Shown here piece after piece: positions 1 to 49,811 of a stretch of DNA of 64,000 nt (the first letter of the stretch is position 1; every line of letters starts with the position of its first letter). The notes under the pieces were generated by a model. It was not told the DNA's origin. It saw nothing but the letters and a program-made list of their open reading frames with translations, and did not search any database. The DNA is from Anolis carolinensis (taxonomy: Eukaryota): positions 264,407,971 to 264,471,970 of the forward strand of contig NC_085843.1 in the NCBI RefSeq assembly GCF_035594765.1, written 5' to 3'. Both the position numbers and the translations under genes were made by a program.

Positions 1-2537
1 CAACTTTTAAATTCTTTTACAGTATCACTCTGTACAATATTGGCCATGTTTTGTATTTCTCTATTCATCCTTTAAGAGTAATTGTGAATAATGCTTGGGT
101 GCTACAGGGCCAAGTAGGATTTCCTTTGGGAGAACATCAAGACAAAGAATGCAGTGAAATTGCAACATAGATCTTAATAGTTGTGCTTCACTTCATTATA
201 TTCTTCCAAGTATCAGCTTGCCATGTTATGGAGTTGCCCCAGTCCCTAGAGGCTCCTCCGTGGATTTTGCTTTTTCTTATGACATAAATGGGATGTAAGC
301 AGGTGATTGAGAGATTTTGCCCATACCAGGCACTGGCTTTCTTGTGGCAAGCAGTGGTCAGGAGGTTATGGAGAACACTTCCTCTTTGTATTCCCAACAG
401 ACTTGCTTCACTGCAGATTGTATTTTGATTATTCAAACAAGCTGTGATTCCCATTCACCCACTACTACTGTCTTCTCCTCTGTTCTAGTTGAAGAACAAA
501 TTCACTTCTTTCTCCTGCCCTTACTGAGTGTTTCTAAAGGAACTATGACATCAGAAAAACACACAAAATAAATCTTCATCTACATTGTCGGTTTTGATTT
601 CACTGCACAGCAGTCTTCATCTCCTAGAAGTGTGGTGGCTGAACTGACATCTTCCTAATCAGCTGCTATCCAAGATCAAAAAGCTGCCACTTATATCCAG
701 TTTGCTTCTCTACATAGATTATTTGCAAAACAGTGACGGTATTTGCTCTAGTGGGGAAAAAACCCCAATGCAAATGATTTGAGGATTATCTGGAACTGAT
801 CATGAAGAACTGGTGAAATAGAACTAGCACTTTAAAATGATACAGTGTATTTGTGAAGGGCAAACAATAGAGCAAATACTGTTCAGGGGACAACACCAGA
901 AAAACCAAACTAATTATGAGTATTAGTCCTGAAAATAATAAAGAAGGCTCTGCAGAACTTGCTGAAAATTTAATTTTTGAAATGTTGCACAAAATTTAGA
1001 TGTGACATGGGATCCATGGGATGGGAAAGAGCATAAAGGGGTGGAGTGAACAAAATCCAGGATATTTTATGAATATGAAGGTAAAATCAAAACAAAAAGA
1101 TATGGAACCTATCAAAACTTTTCCCTCTTCTGAATGAGCTCTCAGAATGATGTTTTCTTTGCGAATGTTGTGAGATATTCTATGTCCTATATATTACATT
1201 GTATTCTTAGTTATAAAACAAATGTAAAAAGTTATAGCATATTCATTTGGATTTTATAAGAAGAGGGAGGAGGAGAACCCTAGCCATTTAAAACTCTTTC
1301 TAATTTTCCTTCTACATATTCTTTGTTGTCTAGCCAGAAATTCATCAGCTTTATTGCTTTCATCATAACTTAAGAGGAATTTATTCAACCTCTGCTTTAT
1401 TGTAAACATCTACCAAACTTTATGTTGTACAATAATGATAATTAGTTGTCAAAACAATTTGATATATTGTCAAGAGAGGATTTGATGCTTTGATTCAACT
1501 GATTACTTGTCTTCATTTGGAGTGAGCCATAAGTACATATAAAAAGTAAATCACTAACAGGTTCCAAACTAATATTTGAAGGTGCACTTTCATTAAAAGT
1601 AATGTTATATCTGTTTTATAAATGAAAATGAACAGATAATCAAACTGAAATGTATAAGTCACATTAATGTATGTAACCATCTAATGTAATGTAACCATTA
1701 GGCTTGAGCGATCCATGAAAAAATTGATTCTAAACTCGTTTCAAAAGTAGGGGGCGCCAGCGTTTCGTTTCTGATGTCATTTCCAAATTTTGCCCCCCCA
1801 AAAATTCGAAATTAACAAAAATTCGTTATTTTCTAAATTAATTCGTTAATGGCGGACGCACATGCGCAGTGGCCAAAAAAAAAACAGCACGAGGGGAGAT
1901 TTTACAGGACTCTCCCGCCCTCATTTTTTGAGTGATCTTCTTCAAACTTGGTACAGTGGTAGAACACATTTCCCTTATCCTCTGATTTTTGGCGAATTTT
2001 CATAGCTTTTATAATAAACCATTTTTTAATAATTGCAGAAATCTGTTCCTGGTTTGAAAGTCTTATTTCCTGTTTCATTGGGTTGTCTTTACTGTGAAAG
2101 TCATTGTTCTACTTCAGAAACTTTGTTTTTGTGGCTGAAACTTTGTTAAATTGGTGGACCAAACCATAATATGTTCCATCCATGTCGCTTGCACAAAGTT
2201 CAGGCAGTGTCATAGATTTTGCCATGTTTCTATGACAGAACCAATTAGGAAATGACATTTATCACCCAGGAACAGAAATCATAGTACACCATCAAATCCT
2301 TCCTGACAGATGGCCATCAGCCTCTGAATAAGGAAATTAGTTCCTGGTTTGAAAGTGCTATTTCCTGTTCCATTGGCTTTTCTGGGCTGAGAGTGTGTGA
2401 CTTGCCCAAGTGGGTGGCAGAGTGGGGAATCATGCCACAATTGGAGTCCAAAATTCAAACCTCTTCCTCCCTCCTTCTCTCTAAACTTCTCATACCTTCC
2501 AAGAATTCACATACTGTATGAAAGTTTGGTCAAGATG

Positions 2538-2983
2538 GTCAGAGGAGGGCAACTAAAATGATCTAGGGTCTGGAGAACAAGCCCTATAAGGAGTGGCTTG
2601 AAGAACTGGGCATGTTTAGCCTGCAGAAAAGAAGGCTGAGAGGAGACATGATGTATAATATGTGAGGGGAAGTCATAGAGAGGAGGGAGCAAGCTTGTTT
2701 TCTGCTGCCCTGCAGACTAGAACACTGAACAATGGCTTTAAACTACAGGAAAGGAGATTTCACCTGAACATTAGGAAGAACTTCCTCACTGTGAGCTGTT
2801 CAGCTGTGGAACTCTCTCCCCGGGCTGTGGTGGAGGTTTCTTCTTTGGAGGCTTTTAAGCAGAAGCTGGATGGCCATCTGTTGGGAGGGATTGGATGGTG
2901 TCTTCCTGCCTGGCAGAAGGGGTTGGGCTGGATGGCCCACGAGGTCTCTTCCAACTCTACTGTTCAATGACGCTATGATTCTA
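2538..2983 (+). mobile_element. CR1 LINE 3' fragment inside hAT copy 1
   Basis: Encodes degenerate CR1 ORF2 C-terminus ([18 protein letters not shown]) and ends in ...CTATGATTCTA. Highly similar to the reverse complement of 59160-59600. Confidence 0.9.
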
Positions 2984-3107
2984 AGTGAGGACAAAAGGGG
3001 GTGGGGAATGTTAAGAGGAGAGAGGGCCTGGAACACCTGGGAATTGTAGTTTGCAAGTGGGCATAGTACTATTGGAGAAACGTTTGCTTCAGCCCAATGC
3101 TTTTATA

Positions 3108-3841
3108 AATGGTCAATATTCAGAGGCTTCCTTCTCCTGCATTTTGAAAGCTATTATGATGAAATTTGCCAGAATGGAAGCAAAAATTAAGTACTCTTAG
3201 CCTATCAAGTTTCATAATGTTTGACCCATCCACTGATTTTTGGGGATTTCTGAAGCAACATTTTTTTTAAATGTTAGCAGATCGATAGCCACGCCTCCCT
3301 GTCCTTCTTCCTTCCACTTTGATTAGCTTGCTAAGGCTTCTGGGAAATGGAGTTTTTTCTCTCGTTATGGCGAATTGCTTCATTAATGGTCAATATTCAG
3401 AGGCTTCGTTCTCCTGCATTATGAAAGCTATTATGATGAAATTTGCCAGAATGGAAGCAAAAATTAAGTACTCTTTGCCTATCAAGTTTCATAATGTTTG
3501 ACCCATCCACTGATTTTTGGGGATTTCTGAAGCAACATTTTTTTAAAATGTTAGCAGATCGATAGCCACGCCTCCCTGTCCTTCTTCCTTCCACTTTGAT
3601 TGGCTTGCTAAGGCTTCTGGGAAATGGAGTTTTTTCTCTCGTTATGGCGAATTGCTTCATTAATGGTCAATATTCAGAGGCTTCGTTCTCCTGCATTATG
3701 AAAGCTATTATGATGAAATTTGCCAGAATGGAAGCAAAAATTAAGTACTCTTTGCCTATCAAGTTTCATAATGTTTGACCCATCCACTGATTTTTGGGGA
3801 TTTCTGAAGCAACATTTTTTTTAAAATGCTAGCAGATCGAT
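3108..3841. repeat. 277-bp tandem repeat, ~2.6 near-identical units, inside hAT copy 1
   Basis: AATGGTCAATATTCAGAGGC recurs at 3108, 3385 and 3662. The duplicated 60-aa ORFs at 3319 and 3596 have the same 277-bp period. Confidence 0.95.
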
Positions 3842-4227
3842 GTCCATGCCTCTCCCTCCCTCCCTCTTCCGCTCTGATTGACTGAGAGGCATGCCAACAT
3901 GGCTTCTCCTCTCAGAGGGGCTACAGCTTCATCCGAAGACATCAGAAACAAACGAAAAAAGGTACTTTTATTATTCAAATTCGTAATATTTGTAAGGGCA
4001 GTGAGCAGATGGTTCAATATTAATTCAAAATTGCTTACGAAACGAATTTTTAACGAATTTAACGAAATAACGAAAAATTTGCTCTAGCCTAGTAACCATC
4101 TTTGGATGGTTAAAATAGTCATCATTATAATGGATTGAGCCTGGAATCTAAAGCAGGATTGGGAACCTTTGCCATAGAACTGAACCACATTTTGCAGTCA
4201 AAAAGGTGTGGCAAGAGGAAGTGATCT

Positions 4228-4325
4228 GGGGTTGTTGTGTGTTTTCCGGGCTGTATGGCCATGTTCCAGAAGTATTCTCTCCTGACGTTTCGCCCACATC
4301 TATGGCAGGCATCCTCAGAGGTTGT
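4228..4325 (-). mobile_element. Short Penelope (Poseidon-type) terminal-repeat insertion
   Basis: Same sequence family as 18973-19078 and 40258-40470. Flanked by a 13-bp direct repeat GAGGAAGTGATCT (4215-4227, 4326-4338). Confidence 0.85.
4281..4321 (-). ncRNA. Minimal type I hammerhead ribozyme motif (PLE-associated)
   Basis: Minus strand reads CCU-CUGAGGA-U-GCCUGC-CAUAGAU-GUGGGC-GAAAC-GUC-AGG: CUGAnGA and GAAAC core, 6-bp stem II, GUC cleavage triplet, minimal palindromic stem III typical of PLE hammerheads. Confidence 0.75.
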
Positions 4326-4644
4326 GAGGAAGTGATCTCTATATCTTGAGCTAAAATACCCAAATTGGTACGAATTATACCTTGTAACGCCACCCATTTT
4401 GCTTGCTCTGTGCTTGGCCTTGTCATGTGTTTAGTTATACTCTCTGTTGGAATGCAACTAAGCCTCTTCCTAAATTACAAATTCCCCTCTGGATTGTAAA
4501 AACCCTTCTCCAAGTCTTACCACTGCTTGCTTAATTAAAAATAAATGCATGGCAATCTGTTGGAATTGATAAGAATGTAAAGGAAGGCAAAATCATATGG
4601 TTTGGAATCGTTTTCTCTGGTAATTGTGTGTTTTGTGGGTTTTT

Positions 4645-18972: not shown

Positions 18973-19078
18973 ATGCAGACAAAATGTCAGGAGAGAATGC
19001 TACTGGAACATGGCCATACAGCCCAGAAAACTCATAGAAACCCAGTGATTCTGGCCATGAAAGCCTTCAACAATACAG
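18973..19078 (+). mobile_element. Penelope (Poseidon-type) terminal-repeat fragment
   Basis: GTCAGGAGAGAATGCTACTGGAACATGGCCATACAGCCC...GAAAGCCTTCAACAATACA, the same family as 40361-40470. Hammerhead core truncated. Confidence 0.8.
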
Positions 19079-19196
19079 TTGAAAAGAAATTGGGGGAAGT
19101 GCATGGTGATAGTATTTCAACCAGTAGTTTGGGAGAATGGAGTATAACTATTGTGGTGTTCCAATAATACTTGGATCTATGCTCCACCTGCTTTCT

Positions 19197-31545: not shown

Positions 31546-32751
31546 TTTAGTTTGCACCTTCTTGCATCAATCATGATGCCTATCTAGGTCTTGTTTACAG
31601 AGAAGCAAAGGTGAAACAGCTCCCTCAATGTAAAAAAAGAAAAGAAAAGGGTGAGGGTTGTATCTTTGAATGATTTGGGCATCTTCAGGAGTTTCACACA
31701 AAGGAATATGTACCTGTACAGTATGGCCCCCCATATTTGTGAGATAAGTATCTATTGTTTCATTTATCCATGTTTGACAAAGCAAGTCATTGCCAGGCAT
31801 TTTCTAGATACTTCTGCATTACTCTTTCATATTTTTGGGTCAGAAGTCCTGCAACAGTTTCCCCATGGATAGGGGGTCATATTGTATTGTCATCTATGAT
31901 AATGAATGCACTTGTTTCCACCTATAAAGTGTTGGGTTTAGGCAAGCCCTTTCTTTCCCCCATAACTCTTTCATATGTATGCCTTTCTACAAATGCACAT
32001 CAAACTCTAAGCCAAAATAAAACTTCCTTGTTTTATTTCTGCAATCAGAAAACCTCCAGGATAAAACTCCTTTTACATAATTTTAAAGAACTTACTGGGG
32101 CCAATTATACACCATAAAATTCATCACCAAAGTATTAACAGTCAGTAATAATGAATTTGACAATACTAAGAAGTTCAGTTTAGAAATTAGGCTTGTCATC
32201 TTAAAAAAAACACTGTAGCCCTTTTTTTCAGTGACACTATGAGATGGTCCTGCTTTGATATTATGTCAAAGTACTGTGGAGCAGTAAAAGGTTTGAAGTA
32301 TTTTTGGTTTGTTTTTGTTTTTGACTGTTGCTGCAGCTGTTCCAAGCAGCTCCAGCTCTGTATAAAATCATTTCAAAGATTTGGCCTCCTACTGAGAAAC
32401 ATTGGTACAGCCAATCACTCTCAATCAATCCTTTTTAATAATTTCTCACTAGTTCCTATTATCACTAATAGCAAGGATGTCTCAAGGCACTATCTGAACA
32501 CTGAAGACTGGATTAGCTGAAAGAATTGGGCTTTTTTTTGAAAGAGAACATGAAGGACAAAAAAATTTAAAGGAACTAGGTTTTTCAGAATATAGAAGGA
32601 AACAAAACAGAAGAGAGAGAGAAGAAAATAAATTTCTTTCCTTCCTACCCCCCCCCCCCCCCCAAGAAGTTACAGAGGACTTTTCTCCAAAAATTAAAAC
32701 TTAATAACTTCAGTCACTCAGTTTTGATTCTCTTACAAGAAGTTATAGCTA

Positions 32752-33165
32752 CTGTATATACTCGAGTATAAGCCAATCTGAATATAAGCCGAGGTACCTA
32801 ATTTTACCACCAAAACACTGGAAAAACGTATTGTCTTGAGTATAAGATGAGGGTGGGAAATGCAGCAGCTACTGGTAAATTTCAAAAATAAAAATAGATA
32901 CCAATAAAATTATATTAATTGAGGCATCAGTAGGTTAAATGTTTTTGAATACTTAAATAAAACTATAACTTAAGTTAATAATAAGACTTTAATAAGATAA
33001 GACTGTCCAACCCTGACTACCTGTATAAGCCAACCCGAATATAAGCCGGACAGGACCTTCACTCAAGTATAAGCTGAGGGGGGCTTTTTCAGCCTTAAAA
33101 GGCTGAGGGGGGCTTTTTCAGCCTTAAAAGGCTGAAAAACTCAGCTTATACTTGAGTATATACGG
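32752..33165. mobile_element. Tc1/mariner (pogo/Tc2-like) MITE
   Basis: 22-bp TIR C(T/C)GTATATACTC(G/A)AGTATAAGC with TA TSDs. Internal TATAAGCC repeats and a ~29-bp tandem duplication at ~33073-33130. Confidence 0.92.
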
Positions 33166-34922
33166 TAATATGCTGGCTGCAAATTCTATACACTGTCGCC
33201 ATCATGCACTGAGTTATTGCCTTATACCAAGGTATATTCAATGTTCTGTCTTCTATGACTGGAAAGTATGGCCCATAAGGATTTTCTGCTAATACAAAAT
33301 ATACTGTACATGCTACCTAAGTGCATAAAAGTAGGAATCAAATCTGTAGCCAATCAGAAATCCAGTGAAACCTCTATCGTTGTTTGCCATGACTTGAATG
33401 GAGACCCTGGTTGGCTAGGACAAAGTTTAGAAACATTACTTTTTCAAGCTACAATTTCATAATCATCCAGCTGGTAGGGTTTTTGGGGAACTGTGATTTA
33501 AAAAAGGATCTGGGCTGAGTTTCCATTATGTTGAAAAAAAATCTATAAGTCATAGGGCCCTTGTGGCATATGCATGGACACCAGAGGATCAATGGGTGTT
33601 TGTGGGAATCAATATTCTTGTGTCTAACATATTTAGAAAGAGACATACATGATTCTGGCTAACTCATGTTTAACCTTGAGAATCAATTGTATGAGGGGCG
33701 ATATAGAAAGGGTTTTTATAATAGGTTTATGGTACTTCTGAATTTCAAATTTTGCTATCTATCTACTTCAGATTGTATGCTACTGTTCGAGACTTGTTCT
33801 TCCAACATATTAAAATGTAAAACTACGTATAGCATACCGCAATTCATAAAAACATTAGTACCAAATAAAGAGAGCAGTGAAAAGTAGTTAGGAATAGCAC
33901 GGGAGGAAGAAGCTCTTCAGTGCCTACAAGCCAAGCTATGTTACCCAGGAGCTGCTTTTTCTGCATGGGTTTACCTCTCCTATGAGCTTATTGAATGGCT
34001 GCCAGCTGCCTCTTAGCAGACTCAGGCCCATAAGTGTTCTTCCGCATCGAGCTGTGTCCTTTTGGGAGCTGGGGTACAAAAAGCAGGCCAGAATTGTTCC
34101 AACACCTTCTGCAAGGAAACTCCAGGAAATGTCTTTTGTCAGCTTGTTAAAGATCCTTGCTTTCATTAGTAGTGATATCAATGTCCTACACTTTTCTTCA
34201 AAGCATATTTGTTTTCCTTTTTTTGCTTTATTTATTCTTTTATTCATAACTCATTTTTCAATGTTCTGGTTTTTTTAATAGCTTTTGTTTTTTCCTGTTT
34301 CTTCTAATTTGATTTTTCTCCACTGTCTATCTGCTTTCTTCTCAGCTACTCTTTTCATGCTCCTTATGGTACTGCAGCTTGCTCCTTAGGTTGCTATTAG
34401 GCTTGATCGATCCACGAAAAATTTGATTCTAAACTCGTTTCAAAACTAGAGGGGGGCAGCTTTTCGTTTCTGATGGTATTTCCGAATTTGGCCCCCCAAA
34501 AAATTCGAAATTAACGAAAATTCGTTATTTTCTAAATTAATTCGTTAATGGCGGACGCGCATGCGCAATTCCCAAAAACAGCACAGAGGGAGAGGACTTT
34601 ACAGGACTCTCCCACCCTCATTTTTGAGTCATCTTCTTCCAACTTGGTACAGTGGTAGAACACATTTAACACTGATAGCTCACCAAAATTTGGAACGTTT
34701 CCCTTATCCTCTGATTTTTGGCGAATTTTCATAGCTTTTATAATAAACCATTTTTTAATAATTGCAGAAATCTGTTCCTGGTTTGAAAGTCTTATTTCCT
34801 GTTAAATTGGGTTGTCTTTACTGTGAAAGTCATTGTTCTACTTCAGAAACTTTGTTTTTGTGGCTGAAACTTTGTTAAATTGGTGTGTGTGTGATATATA
34901 CTGTGTATATAGTCCCTGCATA

Positions 34923-34923
<1 letters not shown>

Positions 34924-34960
<37 letters not shown>
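34924..34960. repeat. (TG)n microsatellite
   Basis: Read directly from the sequence. Confidence 0.97.
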
Positions 34961-34962
<2 letters not shown>

Positions 34963-34963
<1 letters not shown>

Positions 34964-35292
34964 GGTAAAGGTAAAGGTATCCCTTGACGTTAAGTTCAGT
35001 CATGTCTGACTCTGGGGGTTGGTGCTCATCTCCATTTCTAAGCCCAAGAGCCAGTGTTGTCCATAGACACCTCCAAGGTCATGTGGCCGGCATGACTAAA
35101 TGGAGTGTCATTACCTTCCCGCCAGAGCGGTACCTATTGATCTACTCACATTGGCATGTTTTCAAGCTGCTAGGTTGGCAGAAGCTGGAGCTAACAGCGG
35201 GCACTCACTCTGCTCCCGGGATTTGAACCTGGGACCTTTCGGTCTGCAAGTTCAGCAGCTCAGTGCTTTAACACACTTCACCATCAGGGCTC
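34963..35292 (-). mobile_element. Sauria SINE
   Basis: (ACCTTT)n tail seen as AGGTAAAGGTAAAGGT; tRNA-like head with B box GGTTCAAATCC on the minus strand. Highly similar to 46453-46772. Confidence 0.92.
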
Positions 35293-35402
35293 ATGTATAT
35301 ATAATATACATACACATACACACAATGTGGAGAATATGTGGAAAGGTAGATAGATAGATAAGTTGGGAGCCACAGCGAAGGCACCTTCCTGGGAGCAAGG
35401 TC

Positions 35403-35450
<48 letters not shown>
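35403..35450. repeat. (AAT)n microsatellite
   Basis: Read directly from the sequence. Confidence 0.97.
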
Positions 35451-35452
<2 letters not shown>

Positions 35453-35574
35453 CCCTTACAATATCCAAGATGGGTACCATTATTGGCAGAGAAAGCCAAG
35501 CTGTAGGAGTTGAAATCCAATCATTTATCCTCCCTATAGAATCAATTTTATATGCATTTTTAGCTACAGAAAAG

Positions 35575-35835
35575 CTAAAATCAGGACAGTAAAAGAACAA
35601 CACCCAGAAAATGGGAATTCCAGACAGGAAACAATCAGGGCCAGCTAATACCTCCCAACAAAGGATTCCCCCAGGTAGGAAGCAGCCAGGCTTTGAAGCT
35701 GCAAGGCTATTCAATGCTAATCAAGGTGACCAATTGCAACATTCACACTTGCCTCCCACAGACAAGAGTTCTTTCTCCCACCCTGGACCTTCCACAGATA
35801 TATAAACCCCACTTGCCTAGCTTCGCACAGACGTC
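35575..35835 (+). mobile_element. Penelope (Poseidon-type) 3' repeat fragment inside hAT copy 2
   Basis: AATCAGGACAGTAAA...GGAATTCCAGACAGGAAACAATCAGGGCCAGCTAA...ACAGATATATAAACC, recognised from memory as the lizard Penelope pLTR. Breaks off before the hammerhead. Confidence 0.7.
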
Positions 35836-36060
35836 AAAACCTCACCGCCGGGCCCCTCTCTGTCTCTCTCGGTCTCTCCATTCCCGGCTCCATCCGCCGC
35901 CTTCCCACCTCACAGAGAGACACCAGGCCTGAGCTGAGGCGAGGCAGCGGCGGCGGCGGCCATTTCCCCCCTCCGTCTTCCTCCTCCTCCTCGGCCTCCT
36001 TCCCCCTCGCCCCCTCCCATTGGCTGAGCCCGTGACGCCCCTTTTGCTGAGGGGCAAAAG
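35836..36060 (-). promoter_or_regulatory. CpG-island-like promoter/first-exon fragment inside hAT copy 2
   Basis: Abruptly GC/CpG-rich. Minus-strand order: CGTCA half-CRE (36033-36037), CCAAT (36019-36023), G-rich boxes, AAATGGCCGCC (YY1-like, ATG at 35961-35963), splice donor GAG|GTGGGA at 35909/35908. Confidence 0.55.
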
Positions 36061-36555
36061 GAAAGGGCCTGAATGGTGGGAGTTTGGGTGATTTGCAAAA
36101 GCTTTTTTTTCCTAACGAAAAAAACGACGACATAACGAAAAACGGCCTCTCGCAATTCGAAACCGCGATATCCAGACGTGTGGACAACCAATGCTTCAAA
36201 ATTGCTTCAAAACAAACGAAAATAACGAATTAATAACGGTTAACGGGGAAAACGAATTATTTGAGCAAGCCTAGTTGCTATTGTTCATGATTTATTTGTC
36301 TCCATATCTTTTCACTTTCTTGTTCTCACTGAAACCTATGACACTACTACTTCAGCTGCTCTCTCCTTCAGGGGACTTTCCTTTTCTCATTCAAGTCCTC
36401 AAGAGGAAGTGACTCTTTTGTTATCTAGCTTCTTCCATTTTCTGGTGTTTTTACTTTTCTTCCAACTCATTGTTTTTTTGAGGCCCATGCAGTGACTCCC
36501 CTAGGGGAGGTAGGGAGACAAATAAAGTATTATTATTATTGCTATTATTATTATT

Positions 36556-36947: not shown

Positions 36948-37093
36948 NNNNNNNNNNNNNNNNNNNNNNNNNNNNNNNNNNNNNNNNNNNNNNNNNNNNN
37001 NNNNNNNNNNNNNNNNNNNNNNNNNNNNNNNNNNNNNNNNNNNNNNNNNNNNNNNNNNNNNNNNNNNNNNNNNNNNNNNNNNNNNNNNNNNNN
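36948..37093. other. Assembly gap (146 N)
   Basis: Run of N. Confidence 1.
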
Positions 37094-40257: not shown

Positions 40258-40470
40258 GTTGGATTGAGTCTTTCAGGCTGTATGGCCATGTTCCAGGAGC
40301 TTTCTCTCCTGACGTTTCACCCACATCTGTGACAGGCATCCTCAGAGGTGTGAGGTATGTTAGATGTGGGCGAAATGTCAGGAGAGAAAGCTCCTGGAAC
40401 ATGGCCATACAGCCTGAAATACTCACAGCAACCCAATGATTCCAGCCACGGAAGCCTTCGACAATACATT
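40258..40470. mobile_element. Penelope (Poseidon-type) inverted terminal-repeat pair with hammerhead core
   Basis: 40266-40328 is the reverse complement of ~40362-40425. Minus-strand CUGAGGA...GAAAC-GUC at 40308-40348. Confidence 0.88.
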
Positions 40471-45690: not shown

Positions 45691-46452
45691 TGGCCAAGCA
45701 AAGATGCCAAAAATCTTTTAACAATTGAAAAAAGTGTTACTAATTCATGCTGAAACATTTTTTTTTAAAAAAAATAGAACAATATTGTAATCACAACAGA
45801 GCAGCTGCTCTGACAAGGACATCATTGTAGCTTAAACTGGGTGAAAAAATGCAATCTTTTCTGTCCCTCTTGCCAATTGGAATGCATTCTATTTTTCTAT
45901 ATTGTGTCTTGAGAGAGGCTTCTTATCAAATATTGGTTACGTATCATGGAAATCAACTGTTCTCATGCACCAAGTTCCTCTAAAGTGAAAAGGTCTACAT
46001 AATGAAATTGTTTTTATTGCATGGGAAATTACCACAATAATAGGATGTTCCCTGATGCCTCTTTTCTTGGGGATCAGAAAGTATACTGCGGATTTCGAGT
46101 CTGTTCACCACTGTTTTCCATTTATGTTGGCAGATTTTTGTTAGAATTTAAGACAGCATATTTGTAAATAAACCAATGATTGCAAAAGTCTGCTTCTGAT
46201 AGCCTGCTGTTCAAAGAAAACCCAGGCTTAACAGTGCTTCCCCAGATTTTTCACTTCAAAGAAGTATGATATAGCGTATCTTTATGATAGTCATCTAGGG
46301 TCTCTTCACATGGGACTAAATAGCCTCGTTTTGGTGCTTTGACTGGGGCTTGGCCGGGGCTTGCTGAGCTCCATCAGATGATGCTTGGCAGGCCCCACCC
46401 ACATTTCTCCCAAAGTGGAGGGAAAGCGTTAGAAGCTCACTCTCCAATGTTA

Positions 46453-46772
46453 AAGGTAAAGGTTTCCCCTGACGTTAAGTCCAGTCATGTCTGACTCTGG
46501 GGGTTGGTGCTCATCTCAATTTCTAAGCCGAAGAGCCTGTGTTGTCCGTAGACACCTCCAAGGTCATGTGGCCAGCATGACTGCATGGAGCGCCGTTACC
46601 TTCCCGCCAGAGCGGTACCTATTGATCTACTCACATTGGCATGTTTTTGAACTGCTAGGTTGGCAGAAGCTGGAGCTAACAGCGGCCGCTCACGCCGCTC
46701 CTGGGGTTTGAACCTGGGACTTTTCGGTTTCCAGCTCAGTGCTTTAACGCACTTCACCACCGGGGCTCCTGA
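46453..46772 (-). mobile_element. Sauria SINE, full length, with TSD
   Basis: Minus-strand GGAGCCCCGGTGGTGAAGTGCG head, B box GGTTCAAACCC, (ACCTTT)n tail. 11-bp TSD CTCCAATGTTA at 46442-46452 and 46773-46783. Confidence 0.95.
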
Positions 46773-47564: not shown

Positions 47565-49811
47565 CTAAAGATAACAGGTGAAATCAATCCTATCATTCAG
47601 TCCTTTGGGGAATACAGAGTTGAATTTAAAGGTCCAGAAAGACTCCCTTTGTAGAAGAAGTCTTTTATTGTCTCCAGTGGGTTTTACCTTCTCTATCACA
47701 AAGAACTTAAAACTCTCATCAGAATGAGCTTTTTCTTGAAAATGTGTGTATAGAGTAGAGTCTGTGCATCCATTCCTGATTCTGGATTTGTGTTCTTGTA
47801 TCCGTGTTCTCAATGCCCTAGAGGTCATCCCTACATATAAAAATTTACATGGACATATAATCAAATATATGACATTTTCAGATGCACATGTAGTAAAGTG
47901 TCTTAATGTGATGTGAAGATGGAGTATGGGGTATATATCATCTTGAATTCTTAGGGATTGCTTACAACAGTTACAATGGCCACATGGATAATGTCCTTTT
48001 TTGTTTAGGCTTACTGTAGTAGTGGGAGTAATGAGATCTGCATGTATTAGAAAGTTTCTGAAATTTCTAGATCTTTTGTGGGCTACCATAGGTGGTTTTT
48101 CACAGCCCTGGATCTCGTGTATTAGATGCCAATGTCTATTGACGATATTCTTAATTTTGGATGATAGTGGTGTGAGTGTAAGTGGCCAGATGATACGATC
48201 CTTACTAGGCTTAGTTTGTTCTTGTAGTAGGACACTTCTATTGACCCTTTGAGCTCTTTTGTCTGCTGAGTCTACAATTCTTTCAGGGTATCCCCTCATC
48301 TTCAGTGCCTGTTTGAAGGGGTCTATGATAGATTCGAAGTCTTCCTGTAGGCTGGTGTTGCGTTTTAATCTTAATAGTTGATTGTATGGTAAGTTAGATT
48401 TCAAAGAGTGATGGTGGAAACTGTTAAAGTGTAATAAGGAGTTTCTATCAGTAGGTTTGGTGTAGTTTTTGACGTAAAGTCTATTTGATTTCCTGAATAC
48501 ACACACATCTAAAAAATTGATCTTATTACGGTCACATGTATCTGTAAATTTAATGTGGTCATGTATGGTATTAATCCATGTTCTAAAATGTGATGCTGCA
48601 GTATCAGACCGGAAAATTGAGAAGATGTCATCAATGTATCGTCCATAATAGATCATGTCGGGGAGATCTAGATTGTATGTGCTGTTGTAAATGAATTTTG
48701 TCTCAAGGTAGGCAACAAATAGGTTGGCAATAGCAGGAGCCAGAGAACTCCCCATGGCGACTCCACATACTTGTAAATAAAATTGTGTGCCAAATTTAAA
48801 ATAATTGTTTTCTAGAACAATGTCTAATAGATCCATCAGAAAATGTGTTGGGGGTGACAATGATGCTCTAGTGTCCAATACATCCTTAATAACCTGCCTA
48901 GCTTCCTCTAAAGGAATGCTGGTATATAATGCTGTGATGTCTAAAGTCATGAGTATAGCACCTTCAGGTATATGGAGGGATTCCACTGTGTTGATGAAAT
49001 GTCTTGTATCTTTAATATATGATTTGGTCTGGGTAACAAAAGGTTGTAAAAAATGATCTACGTATTTGGCTATGGGTTCTAGAATGGATCCTATTCCAGA
49101 TACAATGGGTCTTCCAGGAGGAGGATGGATGCCCTTATGTATTTTGGGAAGCATGTAAAAGAGTGGTGTCCTGGGAAATTGTTTTATGAGAAATTCGTGG
49201 GTTTGTATGGAGATGTAGCCTAATGCCAGTCCTTCCGAGCATACTGTTCTGATTATAGATCTGATCTTGTCCACAGGATCTTTGTTCAATGTTCGATAAA
49301 AGTGTTCATTTGTGAGCTGCCTCTCAGCTTCTTTAATGTAATCTGTGGTGTTAAGTAGTACTATTGCACCTCCTTTATCGGCTGGTTTCCACGTGTATTC
49401 AGGCATATTAGCTAATCTCTTAATGATCTCTAATTCTGTGTTGGAAATGTTGTGATGAATTCTGTTTGTAGATTTAGAGAGAATGTCAATGTCCCTAGTA
49501 ACTGCTTTCTCAAAGGCTTTAATCATAAAGTTATCAATGTTAGGGCAAAAATGACTCTTGACTCTAAAGGGGTTGTGAGGTTCGGTTTCTGTTTTATTTC
49601 CAAAAAACTGTTTTAGTCTGATGGTATGAAATAAATGAAATAGTTCAATTCTAGTTTTGAAATGATCAAATTTGGGAGTGGGGACAAAGCTTAGTCCCTT
49701 GTTAATGACAGCGGCCTCCTGTGGTGAGAGTTGGTAATCAGAGAGATTGACTACTAGGGACGTGTCTTTTTTCTGTAAGCCCTTTGAAAATGGGGTATTG
49801 GCTGTTGACTC
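47565..49811 (-). CDS. PLE reverse transcriptase / GIY-YIG endonuclease polyprotein (748 sense codons; 653 aa from the first Met at 49526)
   Basis: Upstream of the Met the frame stays open and encodes VVNLSDYQLSPQEAAVINKGLSFVPT. Downstream motifs: PADKGG, LPKIHK..PPGRPIVS, TLDITALYTSI, GVAMGS..AP, RYIDD, Neptune-like CGHCNCC linker, VIY...YVG.T.R.L..R..EH, LLQRE, GLN. Confidence 0.95.
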   Translation of the reverse strand, partial: ESTANTPFSKGLQKKDTSLVVNLSDYQLSPQEAAVINKGLSFVPTPKFDHFKTRIELFHLFHTIRLKQFFGNKTETEPHNPFRVKSHFCPNIDNFMIKAFEKAVTRDIDILSKSTNRIHHNISNTELEIIKRLANMPEYTWKPADKGGAIVLLNTTDYIKEAERQLTNEHFYRTLNKDPVDKIRSIIRTVCSEGLALGYISIQTHEFLIKQFPRTPLFYMLPKIHKGIHPPPGRPIVSGIGSILEPIAKYVDHFLQPFVTQTKSYIKDTRHFINTVESLHIPEGAILMTLDITALYTSIPLEEARQVIKDVLDTRASLSPPTHFLMDLLDIVLENNYFKFGTQFYLQVCGVAMGSSLAPAIANLFVAYLETKFIYNSTYNLDLPDMIYYGRYIDDIFSIFRSDTAASHFRTWINTIHDHIKFTDTCDRNKINFLDVCVFRKSNRLYVKNYTKPTDRNSLLHFNSFHHHSLKSNLPYNQLLRLKRNTSLQEDFESIIDPFKQALKMRGYPERIVDSADKRAQRVNRSVLLQEQTKPSKDRIIWPLTLTPLSSKIKNIVNRHWHLIHEIQGCEKPPMVAHKRSRNFRNFLIHADLITPTTTVSLNKKGHYPCGHCNCCKQSLRIQDDIYPILHLHITLRHFTTCASENVIYLIICPCKFLYVGMTSRALRTRIQEHKSRIRNGCTDSTLYTHFQEKAHSDESFKFFVIEKVKPTGDNKRLLLQRESFWTFKFNSVFPKGLNDRIDFTCYL

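Follow-up and report, generated by a model that had tools for sequence, protein, structure and literature searches.

The closest described relatives of the element reported here are the hAT transposons of Anolis carolinensis known as hobo_AC and hobo-N1 to N15_AC, for which Novick et al. (PMC3014272) reported 15 non-autonomous hobo-N families with 3,272 copies. According to that article, both hobo_AC and hobo-N take up extraneous genomic DNA. Group A of hobo-N holds a Penelope piece and a SINE, and is thought to have been derived from autonomous copies through deletion. The terms promoter, exon, CpG, intron and host gene do not occur in the part of the article that was searched. A leader module with a retroelement-derived GC donor in hobo-N was not found in print.

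Related systems are the Pack-TIRs (Tan et al., PMC8277862, available in part), such as Pack-hAT-N8_XT with the CAPSL 5′ UTR and Ssk-FB4. Captured DNA is often GC-rich in multicopy Pack-TIRs, and in a frog 291 bp of host 5′ UTR were moved to three sites by a hAT. For transposase genes, 8 of the 9 cases of Cosby et al. (bioRxiv 10.1101/2020.05.07.082677) have an acceptor immediately ahead of the transposase frame.

We analysed a 64-kb stretch of the A. carolinensis genome (hereafter the window), in which a GC-rich patch at 35836-36060 is embedded in a hAT element. With hobo_AC and hobo-N this element shares the 11-bp TIR, the 8-bp duplication, the length range, the high copy number and the low divergence. 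It also carries, as they do, a SINE of about 330 bp and a truncated Penelope-like segment. Where the listed hobo-N families combine a complete SINE with a truncated Penelope, as N2, N3 and N5 do, they are 2.2-2.4 kb long, and none of these has a length that fits 1,876 bp. Like the Pack-TIRs, the element has a GC-rich non-coding internal segment between paired hAT TIR ends, many copies and possibly chimeric RNA. However, a Pack-TIR needs a parent outside transposons, which the patch has not been shown to have; moreover, the frog family consists of three copies, whereas the patch belongs to a very high-copy family and part of it appears to be common to a sister transposon lineage. A putative acceptor shortly before the ATG, implying a spliced leader, is the likeness to the cases of Cosby et al., but there the host gene gives the upstream exon, whereas in hobo-N it would be given by the transposon.

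As in transposon-derived alternative promoters and first exons, a longer transcript would obtain its promoter, its leader and its splice donor from a mobile element. The hobo-N case differs from these in general in being a composite cassette, made of a DNA-transposon arm, a GC-rich module and a retroelement-derived GC donor, in a recently active family.

Results

The patch is embedded in a hobo-N element

The features of the element are collected in Table 1. The patch had originally been placed inside a hAT transposon, beside its right arm, and this was confirmed by the 8-bp target duplication on both sides, as in hobo_AC and hobo-N, and by the TIR ends (TAGGCTTGATC and TAGGCTTGCTC). Both ends fit the 11-bp hobo_AC TIR TAGGCTTGMTC (Table 1 of PMC3014272); the group-A form TAGGCTTSATC given in that source fits the left end only. 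Compared with the group-A target pattern NTRNNYAN, which is a consensus, GTTGCTAT is off at one defined position in either orientation. The length lies within the 1.3-3.4 kb given for hobo-N group A, and a Pfam search of the reading frames of the element found no transposase family, in line with a non-autonomous member. Judged from these sequence features, the hAT family itself is already known, namely as hobo_AC/hobo-N of A. carolinensis.

Table 1. Features of the hAT element and of the group-B copy used for comparison (window positions; a slash within a motif marks the exon end).
Feature	Position	Strand	Remarks
Group-B hobo-N copy	1699-4091		duplication GTAACCAT
Left target-site duplication	34390..34397	+	GTTGCTAT
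Non-autonomous hAT, anole hobo-N group-A type	34398..36273	.	1,876 bp, without transposase frame
Left arm	34398..34885	+	ACGAA/TTCGT subterminal words; YY1-like and NRF1-like motif pair at 34547-34566
Embedded SINE	34966..35295	+	330 bp; 89% to free copy at 46451-46771
Penelope-like terminal-repeat fragment	35571..35843	+	right limit measured, left limit tentative
Likely functional GC-type splice donor TAG/GCAAGT	35811..35819	-	exon end 35817
GC-rich promoter-like and leader segment	35844..36060	-	half-CRE, CCAAT, purine tract, YY1-like motif, GCC repeat, 17-codon short ORF
Originally predicted donor GAG/GTGGGA	35903..35911	-	near-private variant; family GC at +1/+2
CCAAT box and purine tract	35989..36028	-	colinear with group-B copy, window about 3848-3886
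Right arm	36061..36273	-	AT-rich, CpG-rich, subterminal words, TIR
Right target-site duplication	36274..36281	+	GTTGCTAT

The left arm matches window positions 1699-2156 at 87%. We take the 330-bp repeat to be a Sauria/ACA SINE, also by the published group-A description, and the second high-copy repeat to be a Penelope terminal repeat with a tentative left limit. Its right limit is marked by a step in depth and by loose ends behind 35843 in four of four runs. Under these tentative names, the 330-bp repeat and the repeat ending at 35843 correspond to the SINE (333 bp) and the Penelope piece that characterise group A. Short motifs of the embedded repeats had no match in the available text and three supplements of PMC11167929.

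An assembly gap of 146 N lies at 36948-37093, 0.7 kb to the right of the element. One contig of run X1 (record 8, depth 24.9) ceases to match exactly at the element's edge, 36274, and goes on for another 20 letters. This points to an allele in which the site is empty, and hence to a polymorphic insertion of the window's copy.

Composition and motifs of the patch

The original prediction of a GC/CpG-rich island in an AT-rich window was borne out. The patch (225 bp) has 67.6% GC, 16 CpG and a CpG o/e of 0.70, against 38.4% GC and an o/e of 0.21 for the window, and it overlaps the highest-GC 225-bp segment of the 64 kb. It passes the sequence rules for a CpG island (at least 200 bp, GC at least 50%, o/e at least 0.6), and 75 overlapping 500-bp segments pass the stricter rule as well. 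The CpG o/e of the AT-rich hAT arms, 1.57 and 1.74, exceeds that of the patch, so that the element's young age accounts for its CpG content no less than an island would.

All the motifs that had been proposed were found on the minus strand in the predicted order: a half-CRE at 36037, CCAAT at 36023, a GC-box variant at 36013 and AAATGGCCGC at 35965, followed by the ORF MAAAAAASPQLRPGVSL with its stop (17 codons) from 35963 and by GAG/GTGGGA with the exon end at 35909. The motif names used throughout (half-CRE, YY1-like, NRF1-like and so on) are tentative. The half-CRE, CCAAT and YY1-like motifs co-occurred in 0.12% of 5,000 dinucleotide shuffles, in a test whose motifs were picked after seeing the patch sequence. 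A donor-like AGGT[AG] turned up in 32% of the shuffles, which puts the 35909 donor, taken alone, at chance level.

We considered the 17-codon ORF as a real coding start and rejected it, since it stops ahead of any donor in the family. When longer proteins were searched for the 99-aa frame of the patch, none of 153 candidates reached E 0.001 or better in what was a weak search. Rfam gave no match on the whole 64-kb window, and a bacterial promoter scan, irrelevant to the patch sequence, returned none.

The patch recurs across a high-copy family

We searched public runs with the words of 35836-36075. Among the 24 runs listed, 20 hold 64-95% of these words, with 10 studies among the holders; all holders are contigs, none is on record as RNA, and they give no evidence on expression. 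Four runs were compared over 35780-36400, with types that we guessed: X1 (DNA) and X15, X17 and X20 (RNA). In X1 the patch had a summed depth, which is not a copy number, of 1.0-2.4 million and the arm one of 0.9-2.2 million, against about 25 in the far flank. The patch thus belongs to the element's high-copy family as a whole. The depth implies many copies, which may lie at distinct sites. A metagenome scan with a 21-mer of the arm gave no match.

The element had been proposed to package a GT donor ending an exon at 35909. At 35907, the +2 base of this donor, the plus strand reads G in 996,142 of 1,018,254 X1 depth units (98%), and likewise in the three presumed RNA runs, each of which has one contig over this base. 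The family thus reads GAG/GCGGGA, and the 35907 site is a CpG in the family, which indicates that the GT of the window's copy arose by CpG decay. The near-fixed differences of the window's copy from the family are those at 35907 and 36154, both CpG to CpA, which hints that this copy was methylated (n=2). The site matches 6 of 9 donor consensus positions, and among the joints and loose ends listed in the four runs none falls at 35909. These results speak against both a packaged GT donor, which is a near-private CpG-decay variant, and splicing from 35909.

Ten joints were listed, eight of them in or at the patch. All ten are present in the DNA run, which makes them deletions among copies and not splicing. 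Some family copies are without 46-89 bp of the patch (35844-35923), and the 80-bp form occurs in X1 and X15. A further donor-like site, GCG/GTGAGG, lies at 35846 (minus strand), where the patch ends on its inner side; neither a family variant nor a junction is listed for it. In eight X1 contigs, different GC-rich letters precede 35840; these contigs were examined as a donor locus and rejected, as these letters number at most 20 and are multi-copy. They begin with letters like those of the Penelope piece and are more likely a junction-length variant.

A transcript-like contig leaves the element at a probable GC donor

Record 29 of run X20, whose organism label (C) differs and whose type was guessed as RNA, is a contig of 3,486 nt with a depth of 166.6. 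It begins at 36163 in the arm and follows the minus strand to 35816, over 345 nt, with seven substitutions and one 3-base gap relative to the window; its variants also occur in X1. After 35816 it runs into unrelated sequence, of which 30 letters are visible. The departure falls exactly at TAG/GCAAGT inside the Penelope-like piece, 92 bases beyond the 35909 site. Among 127 GT/GC sites on both strands of 621 bp this is the best, with 8 of 9 consensus positions. A strong AG/GCAAGT at the exit is what a GC-AG intron would have, as seen in one contig. Manual reading places an ATG 24 nt into the new exon, in a GCC-ATG-G (Kozak-like) context and in the same frame as the TAG closing exon 1. The exit would be, from the sequence, a GC-AG splice joining a non-coding leader to an exon with a start codon.

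The 35817 exit was seen in one contig, from one of the three presumed RNA runs, and contigs carry no strand or start-site information. Record 29 is the only listed piece of X20 over most of the patch, next to two listed arm pieces at depth 5-18. In X15, the contig that spans 35815-35945 keeps following the DNA beyond the 35817 donor. Since record 29 starts at 36163, upstream of CCAAT, it places no start site in the patch.

A stretch of 20 letters from the next exon was absent from the window at up to three mismatches. Pfam on the 394 frames of at least 52 aa in the window, a search that would miss short exons, gave no host-gene family above the cut-off; the only domains above it were reverse transcriptase and GIY-YIG, with three weak matches below. 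With no host exon recognised in the window and the next exon absent from it, record 29 stems from another copy. The expectation that the element splices into neighbouring exons thus found no support at this insertion.

A CCAAT core appears to be shared with a group-B copy

The window also holds a group-B hobo-N copy, which contains 2.7 tandem copies of a 277-bp unit (3108-3852) with CAAT-like, GGAAG and GC-box-like motifs, and presumably a CR1-like piece. Between the group-A and group-B copies, the right arms can be aligned for some 150 bp (score 67, shuffles 23 +/- 4). Inward of the arms, the CCAAT box and purine tract gave a 40-column local alignment (shuffle p 0.007) that 2 of 1,610 control windows equalled, an alignment that is short and purine-rich. 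The core lies 250 and 212 bp from the element end in the two copies. The group-B tandem unit did not align with the patch (p 0.35), and the YY1-like/GCC-repeat part, 35844-35985, has no counterpart in the group-B copy.

This comparison suggests that the CCAAT core may predate the split of groups A and B, and its colinearity makes a module that has long resided in the transposon more plausible than one newly captured from the host. The YY1-like/GCC-repeat part could be captured. No donor locus for the patch was found among the loose ends listed in the four runs. Host capture of the patch is unproven; the colinear core in group B weakens it, and we consider it doubtful.

A pair of YY1-like and NRF1-like motifs is conserved in the left arms of both hobo copies, at 34547-34566 and 1848-1867, and faces inward; two matches were found, against none in 100 shuffles. 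This pair makes a second promoter-like module and may be the true transposase promoter.

Other elements in the window

At 47565-49811 (minus strand), an open frame of 748 aa with reverse transcriptase and GIY-YIG domains marks a Penelope-like element. It does not match the Penelope piece of the hAT at the DNA level and belongs to another family. An element at 32750-33167 has TACTCGAGTATAA-type inverted ends, like TcMar-N4/N6_AC, and a 29-bp internal tandem. A MITE-like inverted repeat of 71 bp, 92% complementary, lies at 40258-40432 and has relatives at 4229-4329 and 18982-19080.

Discussion

We give an even chance to the reading that the patch is a family-wide piece of the right end of hobo-N group A and acts as an inward-facing promoter with a leader exon that is spliced from a GC donor in the Penelope-like piece. 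Transcription would start in or near the patch and head inward on the minus strand, and the non-coding leader exon would be spliced at the 35817 GC donor, within the Penelope-like piece next to the patch. The CCAAT core would be an old part of the hobo lineage, common to group B, and not a recent host capture. The idea of a mobile promoter and first exon, put forward in the original prediction, stands in part: there are many copies, and one contig is consistent with a minus-strand spliced leader, but its exit is at 35817 and not at 35909. The window's own hAT copy is probably a silent passenger.

Who supplied the module, and for which transcript, can be read in two further ways. In the manner of a Pack-TIR, a group-A ancestor may have copied a host promoter and 5′ UTR beside its arm and amplified them, with the exon now using the Penelope-derived donor. 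The recorded uptake of extraneous DNA by hobo_AC/hobo-N, the GC-rich cargo of multicopy Pack-TIRs, the 5′ UTR moved by the frog hAT and the YY1-like/GCC-repeat part without group-B counterpart all fit this history; the lizard count of 0 in PMC8277862 was obtained with 0 hAT consensus for anoCar2. It has to account for the colinear core in group B, for the absence of a donor locus among the listed loose ends, for the GT at 35909, the supposed host donor, that is missing from the family, and, weakly, for the lack of a longer protein beginning with the patch's frame, and we regard it as unlikely. Alternatively, as a sub-case of the preferred reading with the downstream partner fixed, the autonomous hobo_AC would transcribe from its right end, remove a long, cargo-filled first intron and so link the leader with the transposase exon, and the hobo-N elements would keep a relic of this. 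The 3.1 kb of unseen length would suit a hAT transposase mRNA, the acceptors of Cosby et al. and the deletion origin of group A agree with it, Ac has an untranslated leader and introns, and an intron would explain how elements of 9-15 kb (PMC3014272) stay active. Against this, the 35817 donor sits in cargo DNA, the TIRs published for hobo-N14 and N15 would imply that the right end is the authors' 3′ end, and the left arm carries the conserved YY1/NRF1-like motifs in both copies, and this version too we hold to be doubtful.

It is rather improbable that the patch is non-functional, GC-rich low-complexity filler in a young element, with the X20 contig a read-through RNA or a DNA-level variant. 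The CpG excess of the arms over the patch, the DNA deletions running through the patch among copies, the CpG decay in the window's copy and the poor power of computed islands to predict unmethylated promoters in the lizard would agree with filler; it sits badly with an exit at the best of 127 donor sites, a well-contexted ATG right after it, a motif co-occurrence rare in shuffles and a conserved CCAAT core. The exact model first proposed, a first exon ending at 35909 whose packaged GT donor splices to exons beside the window's copy, is largely refuted for the family and hardly credible: a GT does exist in the window's copy, but the family has GC, the site matches 6 of 9 consensus positions and has no listed joint or loose end, and no host exon was recognised in the window. 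As for the unseen 3.1 kb of record 29, it could well be, at a little under an even chance, a host gene or host non-coding RNA beside one insertion; almost as likely, it may be the transposase mRNA of an autonomous hobo_AC. That the exit is a DNA-level junction seems improbable.

At its most far-reaching, though we think this quite unlikely, a host-derived GC-rich promoter and 5′ UTR with the Penelope donor would form a portable first exon in hundreds to thousands of partly polymorphic copies. One or more host mRNAs would by now begin chiefly with this exon, and it would rewire expression differently among individual anoles. If the leader drives the transposase, the cargo would sit in an intron, explaining the tolerance of hobo_AC for up to 15 kb of cargo. 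If it drives host genes, the birth of new first exons could be followed in a living vertebrate, in a DNA transposon that is young, present in many copies and probably segregating to this day.
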